A stretch of DNA of 32,000 bases from Gemmata obscuriglobus (GCF_008065095.1 NZ_CP042911.1:6150001-6182000); one strand, 5' to 3'; positions 25,214 to 32,000 are shown, counted from the first letter of the stretch. Numbers and translations are program-made. Notes: generated by a model not told the origin, from the sequence alone.

Positions 25214-27220
25214 TCACTTCTTGGGCCGGGCGGGAACCGCCCACACCAATGCCGTTGTATCCAGGTGCCCGGAAATCAGCCTGGTGCCGTCCGGGGTGAA
25301 CCGCAGAACGTGCGTGAACCGGTTCCCTGGTCGCTCCCAACCGGTCACCGGCAGCCGGTACCCGCCGAACCACTCGGCGGTCGCCGCGTCGTAGAACTCG
25401 AGTTGATCGGCGGCGGCAACCGCCAGCGTCCGCCCGTCCGGCGACAGGGCCGCTGCGCCGTACTGAGCGATGGGCACCGTGGCGGTCACGCGCCAGATCG
25501 GCGTCGATACCACGACCGCCGCGTACTTCGCCACACCGTCCTCCATGCGGTGCGTCACCAGCGTGAACCACTTGCCGTCGTCCGAGAAGTGCCCCGACAG
25601 CAGGAGAGAATGCCCGGGCACTTTGGCGTCGGCGAGGAGGTTCTTGTCCGGGGAGCCGAGGGCCACCACGCCGCCCCGTCCGTACCCCACTTCGGCAATA
25701 AATTGCGCTCCAGGAGAGAGTTCTCCCCAGTCGCTTTGCCGCGGGTCGGTCAGGCGGGCCACGTTCACGCGCGCCGCGGTCGCGGTGTCCCACGTCGTCA
25801 AGAGGCCCGAATCATCCGCGGTTGCCCCGCGGCTCAGGCCGTGAAGCGTTTTCCCATCGGCAGACAGCCGAATTGACACCACGCCCCCTTGTCCGCCCTC
25901 CTTCAGATCGACAACGAACCGACCCGCGATCTTGCCGGCCAGCGCGTCATATCGCGTGACCTCTCCCGGCCCTGGCCCCGGCAGGTACAGATGCTTCCCG
26001 TTGGGCGCAAACACCAGATACGGAGCGCTCGACCATTGCGCGGCCGTGCGCCACACCTCTTTCCCGGTCGCAGTATCCCAGACGCACACCCGGCTATCGA
26101 GGCCGCGAGTCGCGATCAACTTGCCGTCGGGCGATACGCCGAGACCGTTCACGTAACCGTTATGACCATCGTCCTGCGTGCGGAAAAGCGGTTTCCCCGT
26201 CGCCGCGTCCCACCTCATGAGCATGTGCCCGTTGTGCGCGACCAGTACCTTGCCATCAGGAGTGAGCCGGGCCGGAACGTCTTGAAGACCGCCGCCGGAC
26301 GCAACGACGTCGAACGCGCGCACCGCTTGACCCGCAGCCGGGTCCCACCAAGTGATCCCCTTTAAATCGCCCACGAGCAGCGTTTTGCCGTCCGGCGCAT
26401 AGGCGGCCCACCGCCCACCAGGTGGCCCTTTGAAGCCGTCCCGCAACTTGCCCGTGAGCGGATCGATCGCGCGCCACTCGCTTTTGCCACCGTCCAGATA
26501 AACGCGTGCGACGAGTACCTGCCCCGCCGAATCGAGTGCGAATGTGCCCGCAAGCCAGTCGCTCAGTTGGTGATCCGCAAGCGTTCGCCCTGAGGCCGTG
26601 TCCCAAAGGACAACCTTTCTGCCGACGACGCCGGCCGCCCGCTTCCCGTCACCGGAGAAGTTGACGGCTTCGAAGTACCCATCCCCGCCGCCCAGCGCCG
26701 TCGCCTGCCCGGACTGGATGTCACACAGAAGTACGGAGGAGACGCCCGAACTTGCGGTGGTGAGGATCAGCTTCGAGCCGTCCGGGGAGAAGCGGAACAG
26801 CCGCGGGCGACCGGCCGCGAACTCGGCCAGGCACTTCGGCTTCGACTCACCATCGACCGGTGCCTCCCAGACGGACAGTTTGTCTTGAGAACAGACCGCG
26901 ACCAGCCGACCGTCGGGCGACACCTGTGGGTAGCTGGCGATCGCAACGGGTTCGGGAAGCGGCAGGAACAGCGGCTCCTCGCTGGATTCCCGGGTCGCAC
27001 GCCAGCGCCGCACCTCGGCCAGCATTCCGGCGGTAACGACAGTGCCGTCCTTCTCGATCCCGAATCCCGAGATCGGCGCCCGACCCCGGACCGTGCCGAA
27101 CCGCATCCGCGCCCCGTCCGGCAGCGGGTCACCGTACCGGTCCTTCTTCCCCGGCGGATCGGCCGCCGGTACAGCACCGCACAGCACGGCAACGCCGATG
27201 AACACACCGAATACCCGCAT
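25214..27220 (-). CDS. Secreted WD40/beta-propeller repeat protein
   Basis: From ATG 27220 there is a signal peptide MRVFGVFIGVAVLCGAVPA followed by the DRYGDPLPDGARMRFGT motif. Many blades follow (VSPDGRLVAVCSQDKLSVWE, FSPDGSKLILT, YAPDGKTLLVGDLKGITWWD, VSPDGKLIATRGLDSRVCVWD, LSPDGRTLAVAAADQLEFYD, FTPDGTRLISGHLDTTALVW). The upper part of track ORF 25214..27898 is out of frame over the hydrolase gene. Confidence 0.85.
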   Translation of the reverse strand: MRVFGVFIGVAVLCGAVPAADPPGKKDRYGDPLPDGARMRFGTVRGRAPISGFGIEKDGTVVTAGMLAEVRRWRATRESSEEPLFLPLPEPVAIASYPQVSPDGRLVAVCSQDKLSVWEAPVDGESKPKCLAEFAAGRPRLFRFSPDGSKLILTTASSGVSSVLLCDIQSGQATALGGGDGYFEAVNFSGDGKRAAGVVGRKVVLWDTASGRTLADHQLSDWLAGTFALDSAGQVLVARVYLDGGKSEWRAIDPLTGKLRDGFKGPPGGRWAAYAPDGKTLLVGDLKGITWWDPAAGQAVRAFDVVASGGGLQDVPARLTPDGKVLVAHNGHMLMRWDAATGKPLFRTQDDGHNGYVNGLGVSPDGKLIATRGLDSRVCVWDTATGKEVWRTAAQWSSAPYLVFAPNGKHLYLPGPGPGEVTRYDALAGKIAGRFVVDLKEGGQGGVVSIRLSADGKTLHGLSRGATADDSGLLTTWDTATAARVNVARLTDPRQSDWGELSPGAQFIAEVGYGRGGVVALGSPDKNLLADAKVPGHSLLLSGHFSDDGKWFTLVTHRMEDGVAKYAAVVVSTPIWRVTATVPIAQYGAAALSPDGRTLAVAAADQLEFYDAATAEWFGGYRLPVTGWERPGNRFTHVLRFTPDGTRLISGHLDTTALVWAVPARPKK

Positions 27221-28011: not shown

Positions 28012-28159
28012 ACTCGTCCATTCGGACCATCGGTCCCCTCGACAGTCCGCTCATTGTGCGTCACAAGTGAAGACACGACTCGCTCGACCGCTGGGACCCC
28101 TTCTCAGGGTTCATGTGGCCGAGCCGCGGCGTTCGACCGTGACGCGCACGGTTCGTTCT

Positions 28160-28291
28160 ATTCCCTTCAAGACCAGCCCACTGGGCAAGTTGGATCCGGT
28201 CCCGCCGGAGTGGAACGCGATTAGCAAGCACGAGTTCGACGTGCCGCAGGTCGGGACGGACAAAGCGAACTTCGACATCGTCAGCAAAGGC
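28160..28291 (+). pseudogene. Remnant of a DUF1559-partner lipoprotein gene (C-terminal fragment only)
   Basis: The translation IPFKTSPLGKLDPVPPEWNAISKHEFDVPQVGTDKANFDIVSKG resembles the C-terminus of the intact lipoprotein at 15059..15466 (LIPAKYNTKSDLTFDVPTSGTDKADFVLTK). FDVP..GTDKA.F is shared. Upstream in frame there is no signal peptide or plausible start. Confidence 0.35.
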
Positions 28292-28633
28292 AGGCCGGAA
28301 AGTAACTGCGGCGCGGCAGAAGCGCGGCAAGGCGGTGCCATTTTGGAGCGTCCCTTGTGCGGCGCCGGGGCGCGGGTATGATGGTGGCAGGTCGGTGCAG
28401 CCGACGACCGATTTCGACGCACGGACCGACCTTTTCTGACCGCCGCCGCGCTCGGCACTCGCCGCGCGGCCCACGACCGCCGCCTCTCACGACGACGGCC
28501 GCAGTGACAACCGCGCCGCGCGGGCCGACTGGCCACGCGACACTGCTCCGACGCACCTTCGGGCGCATCGCCGCGCCCGGCCCGACCGACGGCCCGCGAA
28601 CCGTCGACCTTTTCACCTTTTCAGGGACCTGTC

Positions 28634-28816
28634 ATGGACTTCCGACCCCTCGCCGAAGCGGAGCGCCGCCAGCTCCTCACCGCGCTCCGCGGGCACGCCG
28701 ATCGCGGCACCGCGCTGCTGATCGACCCCGAGGACACCAGCTTCGCGGGCACCGCCGACGACGTGCCGGACGAGCAGGTGATCACCGCCGTGAAGTCGGT
28801 CCCCGTGCACTACTGA
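28634..28816 (+). CDS. Small acidic hypothetical protein (60 aa), first gene of the E2/E1-like cassette
   Basis: Almost every codon in ATG 28634..TGA 28816 ends in G or C, a strong coding signature in this genome. No alternative in-frame start exists between the upstream stop at 28505 and 28634. I recognise no family. Confidence 0.55.
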   Translation: MDFRPLAEAERRQLLTALRGHADRGTALLIDPEDTSFAGTADDVPDEQVITAVKSVPVHY

Positions 28817-28917: not shown

Positions 28918-29343
28918 ATGGGACTTCTCGACTCCGAACCGGGCAAGCGGCGGTTGCTGGCCGTTGAACTGCCGGCCATCGAGCGCTACAACGCGGGCCG
29001 CGCCACCGAGTACCGCATCGCGGTCACGAAGGTCGGCGGCGGGCTGACGCTGTCGTACTGTCTCAAGCCGTGCCACAACCCGTACGCGCTCGAAACGCGG
29101 CTCCTGTCCAGCTACCCGATTATGGCGCCCGAAACCCGGGTGCTGACGCCGCTGAAGCACTGCCCGCACCTGCTCGAAGGGCAGACGGTTTGTCTGTGGC
29201 GCCAGGGGTCCACGCGGGCGACCAGCCGCTGGGACGCGAGCCAGTTCACGTGCGTGTTCGCGGTGGTCGCGGCGTGGCGGTGGCTGCTGTGCTACGAGCT
29301 GTGGCACGAAACCGGCGAGTGGCCTCTGCCCGAAGCGAAATGA
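28918..29343 (+). CDS. E2/UBC-like protein (prokaryotic E2 candidate), 141 aa
   Basis: The N-terminal helix RRLLAVELPAIERY resembles the UBC helix-1 pattern. YPIMAPETRVLTPLKHCPHLLEGQTVCLW aligns with the UBC core consensus YPfkPPkvkFxTkiyHPNIxxxGxICL. The candidate catalytic Cys is C92 (TGT 29191-29193). Trp-rich C-terminal helices follow. Third-position GC is high. Confidence 0.6.
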   Translation: MGLLDSEPGKRRLLAVELPAIERYNAGRATEYRIAVTKVGGGLTLSYCLKPCHNPYALETRLLSSYPIMAPETRVLTPLKHCPHLLEGQTVCLWRQGSTRATSRWDASQFTCVFAVVAAWRWLLCYELWHETGEWPLPEAK

Positions 29344-29415: not shown

Positions 29416-30030
29416 ATGCGCCGCCCGAACGTGAACCCCTTACTGGCGCTCGCCGCGTGCGCGGTGGTCGGCACCGGCGGGTGCGATCCTGCGCCGGTCG
29501 TCGATCTGCCGGCCGCCGTCGACGAGTTCGAGGCCAACCGCGCCTCCGTTCAGTACCGGATGGAGGCGGTCGACGCCCGTCTCGCGGCCTGGGATGTGCC
29601 CGACGACCGGACCGCCCAGGAGCAGTTCGCGGCGGAGTGGAAGGAGGAATGGGACGACATCGAGCGCGAGGTGAAAAAGCTGAAGAAGCAACTCACGCGA
29701 CTCAGCCGGTCGTTCGACCGGCAGTTCGCGCGCATGCAGCGCGTGGCGCGCACGATCGACTCGCCGCAGGTGCGGGCCGAGGAGCTGAGCGAGAACGCGG
29801 AACTCCAGCGTCGGTGGCTCACGACCGTCGCCGAGGCCCACACCAATTTCAAGAAGATGGACGAGCAGGTCCGCGCCGCCAGGGACTTTCACAAGACGTT
29901 CCGGCTCGCTGTGATGCGCGGACGGGCAGAGGCCAAGCTCGCCGAGGTGCGGGGCCTGAGCCAGCAGGTCAAGGGCACGGCCGCGGAACTCGAGAAGGTC
30001 ACAACCGAGGGTCGCGCCTTGATTCGTTGA
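29416..30030 (+). CDS. Coiled-coil lipoprotein (hypothetical)
   Basis: AAGGAG lies 5 nt before the ATG at 29416. The signal and lipobox are MRRPNVNPLLALAACAVVGTGGC. The remainder is charged and heptad-like (EWKEEWDDIEREVKKLKKQLTRLSRSFDRQFARMQ...). Confidence 0.65.
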   Translation: MRRPNVNPLLALAACAVVGTGGCDPAPVVDLPAAVDEFEANRASVQYRMEAVDARLAAWDVPDDRTAQEQFAAEWKEEWDDIEREVKKLKKQLTRLSRSFDRQFARMQRVARTIDSPQVRAEELSENAELQRRWLTTVAEAHTNFKKMDEQVRAARDFHKTFRLAVMRGRAEAKLAEVRGLSQQVKGTAAELEKVTTEGRALIR

Positions 30031-30044
30031 GGCCGAAGGGAAGC

Positions 30045-30860
30045 ATGAGTCACGTTTTTCAGTTGGGCGCCGGCAGCGGCGGGATGGCGGTGCTCGACCT
30101 GATCGCGCGCGATCCCGCGGTCACCCGGGTCACGCTCATCGAACCGGACGTGTACGCCGCGCACAACGTCCACCGGCACCTCTTCCCCCCCGCCGCAGTC
30201 GGCCGGCTGAAGGCCGATCTGGCAACCGAGTGGCTGCGGGCGCTACGCCCCGACCTCCAGGTCACGGCGCTCGCTTCCGATATCACCGATCCGACGCGCC
30301 AAGCCGAGTTCGCCGCTCTTGCCGCCGAGTGCGACGTGGGCGTGTGCGCGGCCGACAACGAGGCCGCAAAGTTCGCGTTCGACGCGCTGATGCGGACCAC
30401 GGGAAAGCCGTGGACCCTCGGCGAGGTGCTGAGCGGGGGCATCGGCGGGTGGGTCCACCGGTTCGTGCCCAGCGGGGCGTGTTACGGGTGCGTCGCAAGC
30501 CATTTAAAGCGCGAGGTGACCGAGCAACCGGCCGGCCCGCCGCCCGACTACAGCAACCCGAACGGCACACAACCGGAAACGACGATCCCCGCCGGCAAAG
30601 CGAGCATCGCGACCGTCGCCGGTCTACACGCCCTCGTAACGCTGGGGGAAATCGCCTCGCGCCCGGCGATCGACTTCACCAGCATGTTGTTCTCGCTCCA
30701 GACGGTCACTGGAGTATTTGACGCGCCGTTCCGCGCGCACCGAATGAAGGTCCCGCGCTCGCCCACCTGCCTCACCTGCGGCAACGCCAAACCGCTCCCC
30801 GCCGGAGACGCACTTGACGCCGCACTGGCTGACGCGCTGGGCCGTCTGGGCGCGAACTAA
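30045..30860 (+). CDS. ThiF/MoeB/E1-like adenylyltransferase (271 aa)
   Basis: From ATG 30045 the product reads MSHVFQLGAGSGGMAVLDL (nucleotide-binding Gly loop). ThiF-type matches are IEPDVYAAHNVHRHLF (D..sNl.Rq equivalent), GRLKADL and CAADNEAAKF (catalytic Asp region). Two zinc CxxC pairs lie at C146/C149 and C242/C245. The remainder of track ORF 29457..30860 is out of frame over the lipoprotein gene. Confidence 0.85.
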   Translation: MSHVFQLGAGSGGMAVLDLIARDPAVTRVTLIEPDVYAAHNVHRHLFPPAAVGRLKADLATEWLRALRPDLQVTALASDITDPTRQAEFAALAAECDVGVCAADNEAAKFAFDALMRTTGKPWTLGEVLSGGIGGWVHRFVPSGACYGCVASHLKREVTEQPAGPPPDYSNPNGTQPETTIPAGKASIATVAGLHALVTLGEIASRPAIDFTSMLFSLQTVTGVFDAPFRAHRMKVPRSPTCLTCGNAKPLPAGDALDAALADALGRLGAN

Positions 30861-30894
30861 GCTGCTCCGCGGTGGGCGCCCGCTCCTGACGGGC

Positions 30895-32000
30895 GTGACC
30901 GTCGGGTTCGAGCGCGCCGGCGCCACGCGCTGGGAGTCGCCGGTGCCGTGGACCGCCGACGCGGTGGCGCTGGACGTCGGGTTCCGCGGCCCGGGGCGCG
31001 CGCGCCCCAAGTCGGAGTTTGCGCTCCGCACGCCGAGCGCCACGTTCCCCGCCGATACGATTCGCCCCGGTGGCGACGACCGGTTCCACGTCACGTTCCG
31101 GTTCCCGGTGCCGCCGGACTCAGTGTCCGCCGACCTACTGTGGCGCGGCCGCGTGGTCGAGACGCTCCTTGTGCCCGTGTTGGCCCCGACCCAGTTCCTC
31201 ACCGGCCTGACGCTCGCCGACGCGACCGTCGCGGTGCGGTTCGGTGGGACCACCGCGCCGGCGTCCGCGGTCTGTCAGCACCAGTACGACGGGCTCCTCG
31301 CCGCCGCCCTGCTCCGCAGCCCGACCGGGCTGGCACCGCTCGCGGAACTGGGGGTGCGGGTGGTGTTCCACGACTCCCGCTCGGGCACCGAGTACCCCGC
31401 AACGGTCGCGCTGGGGGCGGCGCAGCTCGCACGGTCGGAAGCGCTGGTGACGGCCGTATGTCCGGAACACCCGCAGCCGGCCGGTCCGTGGTGGGTGGTG
31501 TGGCACGCCGGCGACCGCACCCTCGCGGCGCAGCGGCTCCAGGTGGTGCCCGAAGAGAAGTTCGAACTGGGTGTGCGGGTGCTCGAAATCCGCTTCGCGC
31601 TACTCGACGCGAGCGGCACCGTTCACACCGCAAAGCAGCCGCCCGTGCTGAGCGACGCGGGCAAGATCGGACCGTGCTTCGTGCTCGCCGGGGGCGAGCC
31701 CGGGGCGGTCGGCGTGTGCCGGTTCGAGATCGTGGCGTTCGCAAGCGCCGGCCCGGACCCGAACATCCAACACACGGCCGAAGCGGTCATCACGGACGGA
31801 CCGATGGTGTTCGCCCCGGTGCTGTTCGACGTGTCCGCGCTCGCGCGCGTGAGCGGGTTCGAGTTGCGGTTGGGCGGGCGCGTCTTGGGCGTGGCGTCGC
31901 TGCGGCCGGTGCCCGCGGCGCGGGTCAACGGCGAGGGCGGGTTCGTGCCGCCCCCGGACTTCACCTGGTCGCAGGCGGCCGACGACGAACTCGCGGACCG
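30895..32000 (+). CDS. Large hypothetical protein with ~110-125-aa internal repeats (3' end beyond window)
   Basis: It is absent from the supplied track because there is no stop in the window. Frame 1 is open from 30748 to base 32000 with very high third-position GC. Start candidates are GTG 30895 and TTG 30814; there is no in-frame ATG before 31804. Three modules end in similar strings: LLWRGRVVETLLVPVL, VWHAGDRTLAAQRLQVVP and LRLGGRVLGVASLRPVP. Confidence 0.6.
   Translation, partial: MTVGFERAGATRWESPVPWTADAVALDVGFRGPGRARPKSEFALRTPSATFPADTIRPGGDDRFHVTFRFPVPPDSVSADLLWRGRVVETLLVPVLAPTQFLTGLTLADATVAVRFGGTTAPASAVCQHQYDGLLAAALLRSPTGLAPLAELGVRVVFHDSRSGTEYPATVALGAAQLARSEALVTAVCPEHPQPAGPWWVVWHAGDRTLAAQRLQVVPEEKFELGVRVLEIRFALLDASGTVHTAKQPPVLSDAGKIGPCFVLAGGEPGAVGVCRFEIVAFASAGPDPNIQHTAEAVITDGPMVFAPVLFDVSALARVSGFELRLGGRVLGVASLRPVPAARVNGEGGFVPPPDFTWSQAADDELAD

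Follow-up and report, generated by a model that had tools for sequence, protein, structure and literature searches.

To our knowledge, the bacterial E1/E2 systems that have been characterised so far, namely the Type II systems of anti-phage signalling by cyclic oligonucleotides (CBASS), Bil and Bub, are all sporadic anti-phage modules. The Cap2/Cap3 variety of Type II CBASS, in which an E2-E1 fusion is accompanied by a JAB protein, is reportedly the 6b system of Iyer et al. 2006. An E2-only variety is represented by the Serratia marcescens enzyme SmE2 (8HSB, 8YJY and 9KKB; Pfam family PF26395, 'E2-CBASS'). This enzyme acts on CdnG, a nucleotidyltransferase of the cGAS/DncV-like type (CD-NTase), with neither an E1 nor a JAB protein, and has a C-terminal loop, carrying H152 and K159, that covers the active site. 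Here we describe a relative of SmE2 that is encoded in a window of 32,000 nucleotides from Gemmata obscuriglobus (NZ_CP042911.1:6150001-6182000); the window is the whole stretch that was analysed, and positions are counted from its first letter. We establish the fold of this E2, its family membership, its conserved residues and the structure of its operon, which also encodes a ThiF-type E1 and two uncharacterised proteins, s60 and p401. With a little more confidence than doubt, we propose that the protein is an active minimal E2, that its catalysis would be carried by a Cys92-His84 pair and that the E1/E2 cascade of the operon would conjugate p401 through its C-terminus.

The features of the E2 that carry the argument are the following.

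28918 to 29343, plus strand: gene of an E2 enzyme with the ubiquitin-conjugating (UBC) fold, a member of PF26395 'E2-CBASS' (open reading frame (ORF), precomputed Pfam, PADLOC, AlphaFold2 (AF2) and Foldseek).

29161 to 29169, plus strand: C82-P83-H84, in the place of the His-Pro-Asn (HPN) triad of eukaryotic E2s (hhalign to UbcH5B; HMMER to 8hsb_B).

29191 to 29193, plus strand: C92, the predicted catalytic (thioester) cysteine (conservation; alignment to C85 of UbcH5B and C101 of SmE2).

The gene starts with ATG and its product has 141 amino acids. It is evidently a real gene rather than a chance ORF of GC-rich DNA, because 541 database proteins match the product (E up to 0.001) and the best 120 of these share 71-93% identity with it and are, almost without exception, exactly 141 amino acids long. 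A genome scan put the window in Gemmata algarum or close to it (99% identity), and the 117 species representatives in which it found an E2 orthologue belong, with few exceptions, to Gemmataceae/Gemmatales. Gene order was surveyed by tblastn with the neighbouring genes of the window against 80 GTDB species loci from Gemmataceae, and the counts out of 80 given below refer to this set.

Three independent lines of evidence, from sequence, family annotation and structure, agree on the identity of the protein, and we therefore conclude that it is a true UBC-fold E2 enzyme of the PF26395 E2-CBASS family. The assignment combines precomputed Pfam, PADLOC, a profile search of PDB sequences and the structure. 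For the profile we used an alignment of 26 E2 family sequences reaching down to 25% identity, hereafter A1. Its top match in PDB is the S. marcescens CBASS E2 (8hsb_B, 3e-8), and the eukaryotic UBE2L3, UFC1, UBE2W-like and yeast Ubc6 proteins appear at 5e-7 to 1e-5. Aligned by hhalign to UbcH5B, the sequence of which was entered by hand, A1 gives a probability of 92% and an E of 5.3e-7; C82, P83 and H84 are paired with H75, P76 and N77, C92 with C85, and R12-L13...E17 with the 'RL..E' motif of helix a1. The family annotation is equally direct. A precomputed PF26395 match (E at most 1e-5) exists on this exact protein and on all 120 of the E2 homologues listed, and the PADLOC CBASS E2 models match the protein at 1.3e-8. 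Scans against local copies of NCBIfam and of Pfam, the latter of which may lack PF26395, returned no match, even at E up to 1.

The AF2 model, built on A1, has a predicted local distance difference test score (pLDDT) of 92.4 and a predicted template modelling score (pTM) of 0.87. It consists of a helix (residues 7-25), four strands (35-39, 42-49, 56-62 and 72-75) and a second long helix (112-132), with a long active-site loop between the four-strand meander and this helix, a2. The N-terminal helix, the four-strand antiparallel meander and helix a2 of the UBC fold are all present. In a Foldseek search against PDB, chains of the S. marcescens CdnG-E2 complex take the first (8yjy_B) and third (8hsb_B) ranks with query template modelling scores (TMq) of 0.63-0.64, and the remaining ranks hold UBE2N, UBE2S, CDC34, UFC1, Rad6, Ubc9 and others. 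Apart from a single UEV domain, the top 50 matches are all E2 chains, either eukaryotic or from S. marcescens CdnG-E2, at TMq 0.37-0.66. SmE2 is the best match in structure (TM 0.64) as well as in sequence.

The C-terminal helices a3 and a4 are absent from the model, in which the chain stops after a2 and a tail of nine residues. The protein ends in 'WPLPEAK', six residues past the Trp (W135) that aligns to W146 of SmE2; the terminal K141 is Lys in 76 of the 80 orthologues and Arg in the other four. In our alignments, a C-terminal loop of the SmE2 type, with its regulatory His152 and acceptor Lys159, is not present. The missing a3/a4, together with a non-canonical HPN triad, would be what one expects of a catalytically dead, UEV- or RWD-like scaffold. 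We find this barely credible, however, as the active-site Cys is invariant, the His is nearly so, and SmE2, to which the protein is most closely related, is truncated in the same way and still active.

In the peptide SSYPIMAPETRVLTPLKHCPHLLEGQTVCLW, residues 64-94 of the E2, C82 stands ten residues ahead of C92. The first-pass annotation of this stretch had described such a protein from the DNA alone, and its description was sound. The ORF at 28918-29343 and the ten-residue spacing were correctly read, the hhalign result supports the placing of CPH in the HPN column, AF2 and Foldseek recover the anticipated fold with its N-terminal helix and Trp-rich C-terminal helical region, homologues keep the Cys, and the E1-like gene said to lie nearby is there, a ThiF protein matching PF00899. 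The interpretation placed on the triad fared less well. It was taken for an unusual one-off, a changed oxyanion triad whose flanking residues could add a metal or redox site, and neither part of this is supported by comparison with the wider family. The conserved partners in the operon and the lack of a CD-NTase had escaped it.

Within Gemmataceae, K80-H81-C82-P83-H84 is invariant, and this clade is too shallow for the invariance to be informative. C92 is invariant both in all 80 Gemmataceae orthologues and in all of A1. The other invariant residues of A1 are E17, P67, W122 and W135, and R12, P71 and H84 are nearly invariant (H84 at least 90% conserved). P83 is kept except in the garbled fragment P0147 and in P0171, which has 'GQH' there. 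In A1 the residue at position 82 is C, T, P, V, S or G, and H81 varies as well. Since P83, H84 and C92 are kept while positions 81 and 82 vary, the family signature, as far as it can be read from the alignment, is x-P-H...C, with the His in the column of the eukaryotic Asn and eight residues ahead of the Cys. There is no HPN triad in the protein; the corresponding residues are C-P-H here and x-P-H family-wide.

This signature has a described counterpart. In the HMMER alignment to 8hsb_B, H84 falls on H87 and C92 on C101 of SmE2. With H87A in SmE2, as with C101A, cGAS is no longer linked covalently to the E2, and the protease-like processing of its C-terminus is abolished too (Yan et al., 10.1101/2022.05.25.493364), and an equivalent of H87 is conserved in E2-CBASS E2s and not in Cap2 (10.1101/2022.05.25.493364). 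Given these alignments and the published mutants, the 'changed oxyanion triad' is a catalytic Cys-His signature already known from a described family. P-H is a hallmark of the PF26395/8HSB family, and the altered triad, as a narrow claim, is already explained by the published SmE2 work. Judged by alignment, bacteria are not alone in having a His at the Asn position, as the UBE2W-like Plasmodium E2 2h2y has H-T-H.

An extra metal-binding or redox site at KHCPH, in place of the oxyanion triad, would agree with the invariance of these five residues in Gemmataceae and with the return of a Cys at position 82 in some distant members (P0133, P0184, P0189, P0203, P0180 and P0195, of which P0133, P0180 and P0195 read 'GCPH'). 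We nevertheless regard such a site as very improbable, because most members have T, P, V, S or G at position 82 and H81 varies, whereas P83, H84 and C92 are kept, and the conserved His is already catalytic in SmE2. A lineage-specific role for C82 may exist.

The likeness to SmE2 extends to a minimal UBC core without a3/a4, the 'PH...C' pair and a Trp-rich a2 ending in 'W..tG.W'. Unlike SmE2, the Gemmata E2 has no CD-NTase partner, ends shortly after W135, keeps a eukaryote-like 'YP..aP' and is accompanied by s60, by an E1, usually also by a JAB protein, and by a protein of immunoglobulin (Ig)-like repeats. With the eukaryotic UbcH5B, UBE2L3, UBE2W and UFC1 it shares the fold, the 'R-L..E' of helix a1 and a 'YP..PP' ahead of strand b4, and in eukaryotic E2s, too, the Cys lies ten residues past the first triad position and a Trp follows about 8-12 residues past the Cys. 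It differs from them in having xPH for HPN, no a3/a4 and a Trp-rich a2, and the identity is only about 15-20%. The E2 of Cap2 is ATG3/ATG10-like and is without the HPN, Trp and Pro-rich motifs; the Gemmata E2, unlike it, keeps YP..P, PH and Trp.

Across Gemmataceae the genes around the E2 stand in the fixed order JAB - s60 - E2 - E1 - p401 (tblastn, 80 loci), as set out below with their positions in the window.

28012 to 28633, no strand: gap in place of the JAB gene. The JAB protein, a Prok-JAB peptidase (270-400 amino acids, PF14464), is encoded upstream of s60 in 61 of 80 loci.

28634 to 28816, plus strand: s60 (60 amino acids), the conserved partner of the E2, directly upstream of it in 80 of 80 loci.

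28918 to 29343, plus strand: the E2 (141 amino acids), in 80 of 80 loci.

30045 to 30860, plus strand: E1-like adenylating enzyme of the ThiF family (271 amino acids; PF00899 at 2.4e-19, PADLOC Cap2-type at 5e-21); a ThiF-type E1 is present in 74 of 80 loci.

30814 to 32000, plus strand: p401, the candidate conjugated protein (401 amino acids, the last six codons beyond the window; full gene in locus L001). A p401 of about 400 amino acids is present in 68 of 80 loci.

The JAB slot is empty throughout a Gemmata/Frigoriglobus-like clade that includes the window, and tblastn found no JAB remnant in the 620-bp gap or in the window; the JAB gene has been lost from its slot in this clade. In Limnoglobus the JAB protein matches PF14464 at 7.8e-11. 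An ORF of 88 amino acids is called within the gap (28115-28381), with no family match on record.

The genes flanking the operon are of a housekeeping type: squalene/phytoene synthase (SQS), a PhoPQ-related protein, a hydrolase, TrkA, an aminotransferase and a peptidase M50, and the SQS/PhoPQ-related synteny is partly kept across genera. Identities across the 80 species are 71-99% for the E2, 54-93% for the E1, 33-94% for p401 and 64-79% for the flanking SQS; by this comparison the E2 is the most conserved gene of the operon and exceeds the neighbouring genes too. Because the flanking synteny is kept and the E2 is more conserved than its neighbours, the operon appears to be vertically inherited under strong purifying selection, unlike a defence island. 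Its role is probably a housekeeping or regulatory one and not that of a mobile defence island.

These observations bear on the possibility that the locus belongs to a genuine CBASS or other anti-phage system, the cyclase and effector of which would be encoded elsewhere. The Pfam and PADLOC models that match the E2 were built from CBASS E2s, and the E1 matches Cap2-type models, as such a system would have it. However, no CD-NTase or effector was found near the E2 in any locus for which a wider neighbourhood of about 10 kb was examined (L001, L002, L005, L089 and L092), the neighbours are housekeeping genes in conserved synteny, and the family-wide identity is unlike that of patchy, fast-evolving defence islands. 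We consider an anti-phage role improbable. The Gemmata E2 is in PF26395 and has the UBC fold; it does not belong to a CBASS system and is no Cap2, Bil E2 or Bub E2.

The operon type evidently reaches beyond Gemmataceae. Distant E2s, at 29-46% identity, are found in a JAB - small ORF - E2 - ThiF - X arrangement in four loci (L087, L089, L090 and L092). The small ORFs upstream of the E2 in the first three of these match the hidden Markov model (HMM) of s60, at 6e-16 to 2e-3, and the p401 HMM is matched (E 7e-12) by the protein that follows the E1 in L086, a distant locus. Fusions occur as well. The s60 and E2 parts are joined in P0167, P0177 and P0193, and a transmembrane part, a JAB domain and an E2 are joined in the metagenomic proteins P0180, P0188 and P0195, so that the pairing of JAB and E2 seems also to be realised as one membrane-anchored polypeptide. 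In these last three proteins, which are 550-670 amino acids long, membrane segments occupy the N-terminus, a JAB domain is present and the C-terminal part is an E2 of the PH type, which in two of them reads 'GCPH'.

The E1 has a GxGxxG motif (GAGSGG) and two CxxC zinc motifs, both intact. In 66 orthologues there is no Cys in the crossover-loop region between the two CxxC motifs, and the loop (about residues 150-190) contains an invariant D-Y-S. The corresponding Tyr of the Bub E1 forms an oxyester (PMC11601596), and the Tyr found here resembles that of this tyrosine-oxyester enzyme. The likeness to Bub (6E/DUF6527) comprises a minimal homodimer-type E1, a Cys-less loop and an invariant Tyr (Y370 in Bub, D-Y-S here). 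In Bub, however, the E2 uses Ser, the modifiers are beta-grasp ubiquitin-like proteins (Ubls) and a DUF6527 protease is present, while the Gemmata system has an invariant Cys and no Ubl, and no DUF6527 occurs in the E2 neighbourhoods examined.

With Cap2/Cap3 the operon shares the logic of an E2, a ThiF-like E1 and a JAB protein, and a candidate conjugated protein that is encoded in the operon, is no Ubl and has a flexible C-terminal tail. In Cap2/Cap3 the E2 and E1 are fused and the crossover loop has a Cys (C548), whereas here they are separate genes, the loop has no Cys and there is no cyclase. For Cap2 it has been found that the E2 Cys can replace the E1 Cys in vitro. BilABCD (Type I/II Bil) reportedly also has separate E2, E1 and JAB genes, and its JAB pre-processes a C-terminal extension. 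In Bil the E1 is multidomain, with a CYS domain, and the modifier is a beta-grasp Ubl, in contrast to the 271-residue E1 with a single adenylation domain, and no Ubl, that we find here.

The C-terminus of the E1 is itself conserved, as 'LDxALxxALxRLG' followed by one or two variable residues. The end of the E1 gene overlaps the start of p401 by 47 nt in a different frame (30814-30860). We considered whether the 'RLG' tail is a by-product of the overlapping p401 start and rejected this explanation: variation in the overlap is 0.86 bits at the third E1 codon position, against 0.31 and 0.23 at the other two. Because the variation falls on E1 third positions, the E1 tail is itself under selection. 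Candidate roles for a selected, ubiquitin-like tail on an E1 are those of a pseudo-substrate, autoinhibition or self-conjugation.

The p401 protein has no Pfam or PADLOC family. Its close homologues listed are all Gemmataceae-type, and a profile search for distant relatives gave close Gemmataceae orthologues alone among the best 120 matches listed. In the AF2 model (pLDDT 86.7) three Ig-like/filamin-like beta-sandwich domains stand between an N-terminal helix and a flexible C-terminal one, the latter preceded by a linker of low confidence; Foldseek returns generic Ig-repeat proteins, i.e. invasin, filamin and S-layer (SbsC) repeats. The C-terminus reads 'ELx[DE]RLx[RK]Lx', of the ubiquitin-like 'RLxRLxG' type. 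In the clade without JAB the C-terminal helix is followed by G, GG, QG, SG, Q or S, and in the genera with JAB by 'xG' and two to seven further residues. A Gly lies at most three residues past the helix in 104 of 139 p401 orthologues. Tails are 1-3 residues long in most loci without JAB and 3-9 residues long with it (Mann-Whitney p 3e-5).

The remaining partner, s60, has the invariant residues L6, D31, H59 and Y60 and a C-terminus of the form 'VPxHY'. It has no match in Pfam, NCBIfam or PADLOC, and the best E in a profile search of PDB is 0.44. We rejected s60 as a Ubl, since it is fused N-terminally to E2 elsewhere, which leaves its C-terminus not free, and there is no Ubl, Pfam or PDB match. 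Because of this fusion in other lineages, the s60 C-terminus is no conjugation site. Rather, we infer that s60 is an accessory module of the E2. Possibly, although this is speculation, it stands in for the loop that covers the active site in SmE2 and is missing from this E2.

Taken together, these parts suggest a conjugation pathway in which we infer that p401 is what is conjugated, in what order the steps follow and what biological role they serve. The JAB protein, where present, would first trim the p401 tail. The E1, without a Cys in its crossover loop, would then adenylate the p401 C-terminus, and C92 of the E2 would either attack the adenylate directly or receive the acyl group by way of the Tyr in the E1 loop. 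C92 would hold the acyl group as a thioester, with H84 as general base, and the E2 would hand p401 to a lysine of a target or of another p401, with s60 as an accessory N-terminal module. In suggesting the conjugation of p401 we reason from Type II CBASS, in which a protein of the operon itself, not a Ubl, is conjugated by its C-terminus. A more specific version of this proposal is a vertically inherited, non-defence conjugation pathway of Gemmataceae and their relatives, built of a three-Ig-domain modifier, a Cys-less E1, a Cys-His E2 and the 60-residue 'HY' module; we offer it as a tentative possibility.

Several observations weigh against conjugation of p401 by an E1/E2 cascade. The operon holds no beta-grasp Ubl, and what identifies p401 as a modifier is its tail and its operon position only. 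Twenty-five of the 139 p401 orthologues, including that of the window (RLRRLQ), end in Q or S without a Gly, and the conserved 'RLG-xx' tail of the E1 could equally be the substrate. The contrast in tail length between loci with and without JAB amounts to about one phylogenetic event, and two JAB-less loci (L066 and L071) have long tails. In the complete genome of Limnoglobus roseus (L005; CP042425.1, 4982762-5003187) the JAB-s60-E2 part is kept, the E2 being 76% identical, and a GDSL lipase gene occupies the usual place of the E1 and p401, which lie elsewhere in that genome or have been lost. Finally, SmE2 works without any E1 (10.1101/2022.05.25.493364).

The last two points suit a different account, in which the E2 is an E1-independent transpeptidase like SmE2. 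Its Cys92-His84 pair would cleave after the Gly of a partner tail, either 'ARLG|xx' of the E1 or 'RLxG|x' of p401, and tether that partner as a means of regulation, with no relay; the E1 would be otherwise employed or itself regulated. The account draws on the common family and the same Cys-His pair as an enzyme that needs no E1, on the lack of a catalytic Cys in the E1, on the Limnoglobus E2 without an adjacent E1, and on the selected 'RLG' plus one or two residues at the end of the E1, which recalls G406 plus one residue in CdnG. Nevertheless, the E1 is kept beside the E2 in 74 of 80 loci and in the distant operons, where its 'RLG' tail is not kept; the E2 is without the H152/K159 loop that stores the isopeptide in SmE2; and the presence of JAB suggests a separate processing or deconjugating enzyme. 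For these reasons we think the transpeptidase account unlikely, and continue to favour, with slightly more confidence than doubt, conjugation of p401 by the E1/E2 cascade.

Whichever chemistry applies, a member of PF26395, the one E2 family reported to be E1-independent, is here wired to an E1, usually to a JAB protein and to two uncharacterised proteins. Synteny of the locus holds across a whole planctomycete family, and its E2 is under stronger constraint than the neighbouring metabolic genes. The operon is apparently undescribed so far: we found no description of it in an incomplete coverage of the literature on Gemmata or planctomycete E2/ThiF/JAB systems and on 'E2-CBASS'. If p401 is indeed conjugated, a wider range of proteins can serve as ubiquitin-like modifiers than had been thought, the locus would be a natural test of Cys-His E2 chemistry with E1-driven transfer, and it would add, from outside defence, an example that bears on the pre-eukaryotic evolution of ubiquitination. 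Should the three-Ig-domain version of the proposal also be correct, the ubiquitination-like pathways of bacteria would gain a fourth mechanistic type, one with a housekeeping role, in bacteria with complex cell biology.

One further gene lies within the operon of the window.

29416 to 30030, plus strand: lipoprotein-like coiled-coil protein of 204 amino acids, found in 1 of 80 loci (G. algarum), with weak coiled-coil matches.

This ORF sits between the E2 and the E1, and its product combines a signal peptide of the lipoprotein type (LALAACAVVGTGGC) with a long coiled coil. Because it is found in a single locus of the 80, the gene is a recent, lineage-specific insertion, and its product is probably outside the conjugation system. 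A WD40/beta-propeller gene, on the minus strand at 25214-27220 between the PhoPQ-related and hydrolase genes, occurs at this place in 3 of 80 loci and is likewise a lineage-specific insertion near the operon; it is 668 amino acids long as called in locus L002. Beyond Gemmataceae, in L089, the distant JAB-s67-E2-ThiF operon has a Pup ligase gene (PF03136; 2511-3908, minus strand) about 600 bp upstream of it, encoded on the opposite strand. This may be a case of two protein-tagging systems side by side, though coincidence is possible.

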